Source: Octopus sinensis (lineage: Eukaryota). Taken from it: 7,773 bases of DNA. Numbering within the stretch: the stretch's first letter is position 1; each line of letters starts with the position of its first letter. The notes beneath the pieces are model-generated. The model ran no database searches, had not been told where the DNA came from, and worked only from the letters and a program-made list of their open reading frames with translations. The stretch is from contig NW_021828735.1 in the NCBI RefSeq assembly GCF_006345805.1, forward strand, positions 1 to 7,773, in the 5' to 3' direction. The position numbers and the translations under genes were made by a program. Below, in pieces: positions 2,666-7,047 of the stretch.

Positions 2666-3219
2666 GGAATCGGTAAAACATAGACGCTCAGAATCGGTAA
2701 TAAGTGTGGTACAAATGAATACGGAGGATACTAGAAGCGACTACGTGTGCGCTGGGTTTTGTAAAGCACTTCGTACTGAAAGTAAGATTGGAGATAAGTC
2801 AAGACAAAAGTGTAAGAAATAATCGATGTAGCATAGGTCATTTGACGGTCAAACACGAAGCAAGTCATACCGGGACACAAACCACTGCGGATCGATAAAT
2901 GCTCCAGCTAGGGTTCGTTGTAATCAAATATCATTAGGTCAAGGTGTGCCCTTCCCAAAAGAGATAATGCAAGTCCTATGGGTTTGTGGTCAACAGTAAA
3001 TTAGAAGGTCCCTTGAAAAACTTTCGAAGAGGAAGTAGGCAAAAGGACCTGCACTTATGATCGAATATCGATGGTTGAATATTAGTGATTAGTCGATCCG
3101 GTAAATAGGGGTCTCATATCAGTGAGGGGTGGTCAGTGCGCTGTAAAGGAATCGAGAGGAAGGCCTAGAAACGGTGCGCATTGTTTCCTGATGGACTCTT
3201 CTTAATTAGGGCCGATTCC
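2666..3219 (+). ncRNA. Candidate large structured non-coding RNA (~555 nt), family unassigned
   Basis: Terminal helix 2666-2674/3211-3219 (9 bp). Long-range helix 2694-2709/3049-3064 (15 of 16 positions paired, 3 G-U). Nested helices 2742-2750/2766-2775, 2874-2883/2981-2991, 3006-3011/3045-3050 and 3020-3025/3031-3036. 3' hairpins 3067-3097, 3112-3127 and 3168-3187. Helices were found by eye, with no folding statistics or homology. Confidence 0.5.
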
Positions 3220-3454: not shown

Positions 3455-3672
3455 AGAACGGATGGGGAGGAATGAGACATAAAGAAAGAGTGGGAGGAAG
3501 GGAGGAGGGAAAGAGTAAGAAAGAACGAAAGGTAGACAAATAAAAGGGAAAAGAGGCAAAAAAAAGTAAGACAAAAATGTTTGAAAGAAAGAGTAAAGAT
3601 TGATTGCGAAAGATGAGAGAGAGAAGGGGGACAGCGACAGAAAGAGAGAAAGAGAGAGAGAGAGAGACAGAG
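3455..3672. repeat. Purine-rich low-complexity tract ending in (GA)n
   Basis: Mostly A/G on the + strand, with (AG)n at ~3641-3667. Confidence 0.85.
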
Positions 3673-3787: not shown

Positions 3788-4600
3788 CTGGGTAGTAGTT
3801 GAGCTACACCGCCACCAGAATGGTTAGAGGTGGGTGGAGTGCAAGGTTGCCCCCACCACCATTTTCAAACTAGCTCCCGCCGCCAACGTTATCACAACCA
3901 TTACAAGAACCACTACAATCACCAATGCCCATTCACAAACCATCACAACTGCTACTACTACTACTACTACAACAACAACTACTACTACTGCTGCTGTTGC
4001 TGCTGCTGCTGCTGCTACTACTACTACCGCTACCACTGTCACCACTTCACCCCACGGTTGGCTGGGGTAGGAATTGAGTTACACGCCACCGCCACCGCCG
4101 CCGCCGCTACCATTGCAGTGGTGGATACGGAGCTACACTCTCTCAGGCGCCACCACCACCAGCATTACCATTACAACCGACGCTGCCACTGACAATACCA
4201 CTATCAACACTGCAACCAATACCACAACTACAATGAAAGCCACTGCCATCACTAACAACTCTACTACAATTACTGCTACTACCACCTTCACAACAACAAC
4301 AACAATTACTACTACTGCAATCGCAACCACAACTACCATCAAAATTACTACTACCACCCAAACAACACTAATAGCTACTATTACTACTACTACAACCGCA
4401 AACACGACTACCATCACAACTACTACTACCAACCCAACAACCACTACTACCACTAATACTACCACGACTTCACCCCACGATTAGCTTATGAAGGAGTTCA
4501 GTTACATCGCCGCGCCACCACATCTGAGGGGGATACGGAGCTACCCTATAGACCACCACCACCACCAACAACAACAACACCACCCTCACCAGCATTACCA
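3788..4600. repeat. Diverged tandem duplication (period ~410-430 bp) of non-SSR anchors separated by (ACT/ACC/AAC)n expansions
   Basis: ACTTCACCCCACG at 4044 and 4467, GGATACGGAGCTAC at 4123 and 4531, CACCAGCATTACCA at 4157 and 4587. A third partial copy CTGGGTAGTAGTTGAGCTACACCGCCACC (3788-3816) matches CTGGGGTAGGAATTGAGTTACACGCCACC (~4062-4090). Confidence 0.8.
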
Positions 4601-6533: not shown

Positions 6534-7047
6534 GAGTGAGAGAGCAGTTCATGCCATCAAAGTGACACTGGGGTAAAATATACGAAGCCCAATACCATCA
6601 TGACTACCCGTCTGATAAAGGTACAACCAGGCACATGCATCACAACCATATGTGCGCGACATGGTGATCTCATATCAAGATAACAGCACCAGACCTTGCA
6701 GGTGGGGCCCAGTTAGAATTTTCTTCAGGTTGAGTAGCCCATCCCGCTCAACGGTCCCTGAATAAGGGTTGTTTAAGGATGTTGAAAGAACCACCATGTT
6801 TCCAGAGGTGAACTATTCAAACCCCCAAAGAATTCCTCTCAACACATGGCTATGATGCTCCCCCACTACTTCTGCTCGTGATCAGAGATGCACATATCGT
6901 CAGCCACTAAGGGACATGCTCAACTGGTTAAGGTCAAACAACTGACAAGCAATCTGTGGTATGAGCAGATATTTGCTGTAGCCCATCTTTTATACCAAGA
7001 CAAAACAATGTACATGAAACACTTCCAATCAGTTAAGATCAGAAGCC
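6534..7047 (-). mobile_element. 514-bp non-coding interspersed element embedded in (ATT)n; probable non-autonomous retroposon
   Basis: Sharp boundaries between complex sequence (GAGTGAGAGAGCAG...TTAAGATCAGAAGCC) and (ATT)n on both sides. No terminal inverted repeats and no credible ORF. It resembles a high-copy repeat I recall from Octopus. The minus-strand orientation is inferred from ...CTCTCTCACTC(AAT)n and is uncertain. Confidence 0.7.

Follow-up and report, generated by a model that had tools for sequence, protein, structure and literature searches.

Among hammerhead ribozymes, the non-circularly permuted type SGC (HRIMA-1 and its variants) was validated by Eckert et al. in 2023 (PMC10085705). 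As set out in the text of that paper, CUGANGA is assumed always to stand directly before its stem II strand and six permutations are counted, the type-SGC examples are all environmental with none in the genomes of known organisms, and neither k-turns nor a retrotransposon setting is mentioned there. Hammerheads are also known in Penelope-like pseudo-LTRs and in non-LTR retrozymes, described in the preprint text as being of type I, with GIY-YIG elements or non-coding repeats as hosts (bioRxiv 10.64898/2026.07.22.740005). For R2 elements, the account in PMC3414825 describes SIDEs, i.e. internally deleted LINEs with a restriction-like endonuclease (RLE) that keep an intact 5' ribozyme and form amplified families; this HDV-like ribozyme frees the element RNA from the co-transcript. 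R2-Hero elements were found in a bivalve study to be, among molluscs, almost confined to cephalopods.

The window analysed here is an entire 7773-nt contig of a 2.72-Gb octopus assembly. It contains an island of about 555 nt (2666-3219) that is a decayed, internally deleted copy of an octopus non-LTR retrotransposon (LINE) with a restriction-like endonuclease, likely of the group HERO (Table 1).

Table 1. Features of the island (window coordinates) and the evidence for, or present state of, each feature.
Feature	Position	Strand	Evidence or state in the island
N-terminal coding remnant of an RLE-type LINE (likely HERO)	2667..3047	+	tblastn, outside homologues, DNA identity
Deletion junction; about 3 kb gone (RT, zinc knuckle, endonuclease)	3040..3055	+	mapping to L059; L114
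Element 3' UTR; the family's last ~75-100 nt of 3' end gone	3048..3196	+	L154, young family
Hairpin directly 5' of stem II	3112..3127	+	6 bp in island; position conserved across relatives
Predicted stem II, 5' strand (pairs with 3162-3167)	3129..3134	+	4/6 pairs left; core-proximal pair lost (C11.1 = A, 3167)
Outer helix (3135-3141/3176-3182)	3135..3182	+	7/7 pairs; counterpart of the type-SGC stem I-II interaction helix
Predicted stem III, inside outer helix	3148-3152/3171-3175	+	2/5 pairs; position 16.2 = A (3151)
Predicted cleavage site and GAAA, both inside outer helix	after 3153; 3168-3171	+	
Predicted stem I (3154-3158/3183-3187)	3154..3194	+	4/5 pairs
CUGANGA core word	3188-3194	+	ends in G rather than A9
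Non-homologous 23-nt tail, holding the 3' arm of the terminal helix drawn in the sequence-only reading	3197..3219	+	end of homology

The coding remnant comprises what is left of a C2H2 zinc finger, an SPDSNHSGSIN-like segment and a WPAANE...FEEKV segment, and positions 2706-2909 translate, through two stops, into the N-terminal region of the element. In tblastn the island matched the N-terminus of L060 with an E value of 1e-9 and L059 with 35.8 bits (shuffle maximum 21.9), and its N-terminal region was matched by 10 of 120 outside homologues. At the DNA level the 5' part is 67% identical to L101 over 367 nt and to L061 over 363 nt; its 5' edge is uncertain, at about 2650-2667, and the 5' UTR is absent. 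The island maps to the reference copy L059 at two separate stretches, 299-451 and 3532-3616, and one further locus, L114, is co-linear with it across the deletion junction (64% over 474 nt). The 3' UTR is 77% identical to L154 over 141 nt and about 80% identical to the young family over 86 nt, and the older subfamily (L101, L154) is closer to the island than the young family is. Homology stops at about 3190-3199 in most of the 26 aligned loci, leaving 3197-3219 outside the element family. Over the island interior the only long contig is one from another sample (X20); it agrees with 2731-3072 apart from 13 differences and ends just 25 nt past the deletion junction, and the outer edges of the island are bridged by none of the contigs. 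Strict own-genome searches with 2985-3125, which spans the junction, and with 2640-2840 matched the window alone, a result that is no measure of rarity. Given that the 5' UTR, the upstream ribozyme described below and three nucleotides of the ribozyme core are missing, this copy is likely dead.

The parent element is abundant in the octopus genome. An own-genome search with the island returned 798 candidates and, of 40 that were scored, most matched 3108-3193 at about 80%. The element copies have a common fixed 3' end, located after the end of an ORF, and variable 5' truncation, and the 5' part of the island matches the young family about 3.1 kb upstream of the 3' UTR match. L059 (1094-4790) is a near full-length copy, L060 has a 793-aa frame without a stop that encodes a reverse transcriptase (RVT_1, E 7e-19), and the N-terminal frames of the element give a weak C2H2 finger match. 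The best PDB matches of the element protein are R2 proteins and the closest named relative is P0047 of Octopus bimaculoides (87%). The parent copies thus show the features of RLE-type non-LTR elements of the R2 group: a single ORF, a zinc finger, RT and a C-terminal restriction-like endonuclease. The endonuclease was assigned from the motifs ELTVPxE and EVGCRG rather than from a profile match, and these C-terminal motifs are typical of the HERO clade. From these motifs and the reported near-restriction of molluscan R2-Hero to cephalopods, rather than from a tree of reference HEROs, the element is likely a HERO. As in the described members of that clade, the single ORF has an N-terminal zinc finger, RT and the C-terminal endonuclease, target specificity is absent and the host is a cephalopod (PMC4640811, PMC10294476, PMC3636483); unlike them, the island copy is deleted and decayed. 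A second young and abundant octopus family, with 2473 search candidates, encodes a protein about 50% identical to the first, and its own version of the 3' UTR motif described below was seen at L029 (~1060-1130), L099 (~4500-4580) and L260-L271.

Internal deletions of the same kind recur in the family. In 13 of 25 mapped loci, the island included, the N-terminal region is joined to the 3' end; these loci are a selected set, picked by a search with the 5' part and several of them for shortness. In young copies (94-95% identity) the deletions are numerous and differ from one another, and their junctions show 0-7 nt of microhomology or a short filler, which indicates that deletion is a recurrent by-product. 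Splicing as the source was ruled out, since GT-AG ends were absent from all 16 junctions examined in 13 loci. Alternatively, the island could be a member of a non-autonomous family descended from one deleted master, i.e. a SIDE, rather than one outcome among many separate deletions. There are at least 11 further old copies of similar short length, and several of these have the diagnostic bases of the island, namely a 6-nt insertion in the 5' part and its variant of the 3' UTR. In three copies (L114, L120 and L064) the breakpoint is no more than about 20 nt from the island junction, and known SIDEs, as described in PMC3414825, shorten further over time. The breakpoints nevertheless vary among copies, being similar and not identical, the young copies show the many different junctions noted above, the strict junction search matched only the island, and the island has no 5' end. 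We regard descent from a single master as the less likely origin, one that may nevertheless hold for the old short copies. Like R2 SIDEs, the island is an RLE LINE in which an internal deletion has brought a 5' and a 3' part together, but the ribozyme predicted for the octopus element is of another class and lies in the 3' UTR, and the island copy is without its ends. Descent from a deleted master and the presence of a ribozyme are compatible with each other.

In the 3' UTRs of metagenome relatives of the element (80 loci), GAAAC followed by CUGANGA was recurrent. Read 5' to 3', the motif begins with the 5' strands of stem II and of an outer helix, a loop, the 5' strand of stem III and U-H; the 5' strand of stem I, a short linker, the 3' strand of stem II and GAAA follow; and the 3' strands of stem III, outer helix and stem I lead to CUGANGA at the end. 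The block order is thus cleavage site - GAAA - CUGANGA (S-G-C). A full descriptor of this arrangement matched 21/46 outside UTR windows and 0/4600 shuffles, where the matches include near-duplicate outside loci, three loci (L199, L219 and L230) were parsed wrongly upstream in that run, and the contigs of the closest outside protein relatives (P0001-P0026) were not part of the UTR set. Among the 25 windows without a match, some are truncated, some have the motif farther out or with a variant core and some have no motif. Ten other descriptor matches were obtained in 590 kb, all on the sense strand and located farther downstream or upstream of the ORF.

The motif-bearing elements are 32-60% identical in protein to the octopus element. 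Pairing within each full-descriptor match is given by construction; G10.1-C11.1 and G16.2-C15.2 were not demanded by the descriptor and each is present in 20/21 distinct cores. All 21 contain the hammerhead core words CUGANGA, GAAA and N-U-H, and their helix positions show up to six pair types. When strands were swapped between sequences, full pairing occurred in 31, 96, 54 and 46 of 420 trials for stems I, II, III and the outer helix, respectively. The relatives thus show three covarying stems at a core with G10.1-C11.1 and A15.1-U16.1. As a guard against circularity, the demands for stem II and the outer helix were dropped in a relaxed search, which gave 34 matches, 33 of them sense. A Watson-Crick stem II of at least 4 bp, whose upstream strand starts 20-26 nt before the cut, was found in 28/33 (6.4 expected), and none of the 33 had a stem II strand with at least 3 Watson-Crick pairs directly after CUGANGA when 0-2 inserted nt were allowed, so that a canonical type-SGC stem II was rejected. 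A C precedes GAAA in 31/33, and the loop between stem III and the outer helix is k-turn-like in 21/33 (a bulge being the alternative). In 24 of 28 relatives a stem of at least 5 bp ends within 2 nt of G10.1, against 10.8 expected. On these comparative data we are highly confident that the ribozyme-like motif is real as a conserved structure of the family, and the predicted hammerhead quite probably is catalytic and cleaves itself.

At four loci, L191 (~3696), L251 (~3683), L219 (~3548) and L225 (~3483), the cores have stems I and III, and the 22-nt window tested upstream gave no Watson-Crick stem II of 4 bp (in L225 there is one if G-U pairs are allowed); these cores may be further variants. 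Several other assignments of the motif were rejected. Rfam gave nothing at E<=1 for five relative loci, at least four of them with the full motif, and this result together with the S-G-C order excludes the circular permutations of types I, II and III (CGS, GSC, SCG), which have no pseudoknots; a type II hammerhead was also tried and did not fit. In SECIS elements the UGA/GA quartet lies 11-12 nt from the apical AA, and the ORF they serve contains an in-frame UGA. The corresponding spacing here is about 17 nt, the 793-aa frame of the parent has no stop and there is no Rfam match, and a SECIS was likewise dismissed.

The motif has much in common with type SGC as described in the text of PMC10085705. 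The order cleavage site - GAAA - CUGANGA, the pseudoknotted stems I-III, the short linker between stems I and II and a fourth helix that links stems I and II at their other sides and is in some cases connected to stem III without a spacer, are the same in both. In contrast, where type SGC has a stem II strand after CUGANGA, this strand stands at the 5' start here. The chain of the motif is opened between A9 and G10.1 and the type-SGC ends are joined through the kink-turn-like loop or the bulge; an extra hairpin adjoins G10.1, and the octopus motif is found in LINEs of an animal genome. It falls outside the six permutations of that paper (PMC10085705), because these assume an unbroken block of CUGANGA and stem II. 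By its predicted structure, the motif would work like type SGC but lacks the placement of stem II after CUGANGA that marks the members of that type.

The full motif was matched in 18 of 29 octopus loci tested, and intact cores occur in both young families, in spite of a protein identity of only about 50% between them. The full descriptor had no match on either strand of the window. Of the helices in the island copy, the outer helix and stem I are preserved and stem III is broken, and the core positions A9, C11.1 and G16.2 are altered. We consider it likely, from comparison with the relatives, that the island is a deleted, decayed LINE (likely HERO) with a broken copy of the predicted rearranged hammerhead in its 3' UTR. 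The sequence-only reading had proposed a separate structured 3' domain; such a domain is present at about 3112-3194 and includes the proposed hairpin 3112-3127, which is part of the conserved structure in the relatives, but it folds differently from the drawing. Several results count against the ribozyme reading. For some octopus copies the minimum free energy (MFE) structure is a simple long hairpin in which the CUGAU core is paired and which folds equally well or better, and RNAalifold found no consensus on 29 mostly decayed octopus copies. The absence of a stem II strand after A9, which Eckert et al. took to be required, and the 25 of 46 UTR windows without a match also weigh against it. 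The simple hairpin was itself rejected as the structure of the 3' UTR, with single-sequence z-scores of -2.3 to 0 on seven sense strands and the same lack of an RNAalifold consensus.

The arrangement of young copies bears on the function of the motif. Among 29 young loci, 16 reach the 5' end of the element, and in 15 of the 16 a 3'-end piece stands immediately in front of it, with an exact junction. A pseudo-LTR-like arrangement was observed at L068-L096, L123, L125, L129 (G000) and L097, the last being from family D and having the same order of 3' piece and element. Eight of the upstream pieces share one start; the copies that carry them, L068, L072, L073, L078, L081, L082, L085 and L093 (mostly on contig C18), also have two deletions in common, which marks these eight as duplicates of one insertion. 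With duplicates removed and three older loci added there are 11 distinct upstream pieces, 10 of which start upstream of the predicted cut (19/20 when duplicates are included). This cut is at reference position 3576, 121 nt before the 3' end of the element. The motif is located upstream of the ORF also in the outside contigs L192, L204 and L248, and outside contigs with an upstream motif or repeated ends were seen. A tandem structure is also present in pufferfish Zebulon.

A linear RNA cut only at the upstream ribozyme is insufficient to explain these pieces, since they reach beyond the cut, and targeting of the element's own 5' end is disfavoured because the 3' flanks of single insertions are unrelated. 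A unit RNA that is cut twice, circularised or copied by jumps, and internally primed would account for pieces, junctions and flanks. Under such a mechanism, a copy preceded by its own 3'-end piece would be transcribed by read-through, and the upstream and downstream predicted ribozymes would cut out a unit-length RNA, which would then either be circularised by ligation or serve as a template for seamless jumps from end to end. Priming by the element RT would take place 121 nt downstream of the cut, and the enzyme would continue around the template, giving mostly 5'-truncated and sometimes more-than-unit copies, and jumps at microhomologies could produce internally deleted copies such as the island. 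The steps of cleavage, ligation and internal priming are those we infer from the arrangement of the copies; a circular RNA template, read from DNA copies alone, would fit the exact head-to-tail junctions of the young copies. Two internally deleted copies, L079 (880-2628) and L125 (1031-2150, both in oriented coordinates), keep the upstream as well as the downstream 3' UTR. With two predicted ribozyme sites each, they are candidates for non-autonomous circles of about 1.0-1.4 kb. The comprehensive scenario, in which HERO-type LINEs have an active hammerhead of a seventh connectivity, often kinked by a k-turn, and retrotranspose by internal priming on self-cut RNA circles, as Penelope elements and retrozymes do but with an enzyme of the R2 type, and in which deleted copies with two ribozymes (L079 and L125, for example) are nascent retrozyme-like parasites, may be right or wrong with about equal chances.

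The same element could instead carry a fold that is non-catalytic in vivo, a hammerhead-derived or hammerhead-like signal bound by the RT protein, with tandem copies produced by template jumps on linear RNA. R2 proteins recognise their own 3' UTR and jump between templates, as reported in PMC3414825, every insertion has a common 3' end 121 nt past the predicted cut, and the link between A9 and G10.1 is absent in the motif, all of which would suit such a signal. Against it, CUGANGA, GAAA, U-H, A15.1-U16.1 and G10.1-C11.1 are kept at 32-60% protein identity while the helix sequences vary freely. Template jumps of R2 add non-templated bases, unlike the exact tandem junctions seen here. We regard a purely non-catalytic signal as improbable and a self-cleaving hammerhead as the preferred reading. 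In the Penelope-like elements and retrozymes, as described in the preprint, tandem copies likewise have the ribozyme-bearing 3' region a second time, upstream, and cleavage, circles and rolling-circle-like copying are proposed (bioRxiv 10.64898/2026.07.22.740005); in contrast to those hosts and their type I ribozymes, the octopus host is a LINE with RT and a restriction-like endonuclease and the topology differs. No ribozyme in HERO elements was found in the literature searched, which did not take in Repbase Reports, the supplements of PMC10085705 or the majority of subscription journals, and within the same literature we could not find the strand order of the motif in print. Cleavage by the motif would contradict a stated rule on the wiring of the hammerhead core and would place a non-circularly permuted ribozyme at high copy number in animal genomes; HERO, a little-studied clade of the R2 group, would gain a concrete route of RNA release, and the exact head-to-tail copies would be explained. 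The island itself is an ordinary dead copy.

The sequence-only reading had described the island as one end-closed structured RNA of about 555 nt, similar to ROOL or OLE, on the + strand. All pairings it listed are in the sequence as written: the terminal helix has 8 Watson-Crick pairs and 1 G-U, the long helix 2694-2709/3049-3064 has 12 Watson-Crick pairs, 3 G-U and 1 mismatch, and CACAAACC/GGTTTGTG and AGGTCC/GGACCT were confirmed. The global fold is no better than that of shuffles on either strand, with an MFE z-score of -0.95 on the + strand (18/100 dinucleotide shuffles fold equally well) and -0.49 on the - strand, and the predicted MFE structure keeps the terminal helix and lacks the long one. 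The best helix was equalled by 79/300 shuffles and the number of perfect 8-bp stems was reached by 46/300. Helices scoring at least 20 were in excess (18 against a shuffle mean of 8.7; 0/300 shuffles), where many of the 18 are mutually exclusive and the other of the two thresholds tried gave 85/300. The first 30 nt also form a perfect 8-bp match with the last 30, which was seen in 28/5000 shuffles, with boundaries that were picked post hoc. The helix excess and this terminal match speak for the sequence-only reading, but conservation was found for neither.

Pairing was also examined in homologues, for which 22 loci were mapped to the 5' part of the island and 26 loci to its 3' part; about 50% pairing is expected from 70% identity alone. 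The long helix was 52% paired (51/99 cells), the terminal helix 50% (12/24, with the 3' arm aligned in just 3/15 loci), CACAAACC/GGTTTGTG 59%, where almost every locus lacked pairing at the same three positions, and hairpin 3168-3187 61%. Hairpins 3067-3097, 3112-3127 and 3020-3036 were 69-75% paired. The global fold is thus peculiar to this copy. The 5' terminal arm GGAATCGGT falls within the coding region of the parent element and the first GAATCGGT aligns within the coding region. A MITE with 9-bp terminal repeats was rejected, because its 5' arm would be made of coding sequence from inside the element and no homologue exists for its 3' arm. An Rfam search of the window gave nothing near a gathering score, ROOL, GOLLD and OLE included, the only hit overlapping the island being Methylobacterium-1 at E 9.3, and the island had no match in a phage collection. 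The suggested foreign or bacterial origin thus finds no support, with hundreds of candidate relatives in the same genome, no phage match and a matching contig from another sample. Of what had been proposed, the + strand as RNA strand was borne out, and an RNA-structured mobile element was rightly among the options offered. The outcomes that the reading had itself named as refuting the large RNA were obtained: a z-score near zero, listed long-range helices without conservation and a match to the interior of a transposon. The large RNA is almost certainly unreal as drawn and the island a dead LINE fragment. That the whole 555 nt is nonetheless a functional end-closed RNA of host or foreign origin, possibly exapted from the dead element, is highly improbable and already largely refuted: the existing helices, their mid-strength excess at one threshold and the terminal 8 bp stand against near-zero z-scores, the absence of Rfam and phage matches, unconserved long-range helices and the decayed coding homology of a transposon interior.

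Elsewhere in the window, a frame with one stop at 419-676 appears to resemble the C-terminal end of a CR1-type LINE protein. Between AT/AC repeats at 877-1016 there is a 140-nt element with 15-nt terminal inverted repeats (87%), likely a small MITE. The stretches at about 1065-1440 and 6535-7047 have the appearance of common octopus SINE-type repeats, the latter with (ATT)n flanks on both sides.
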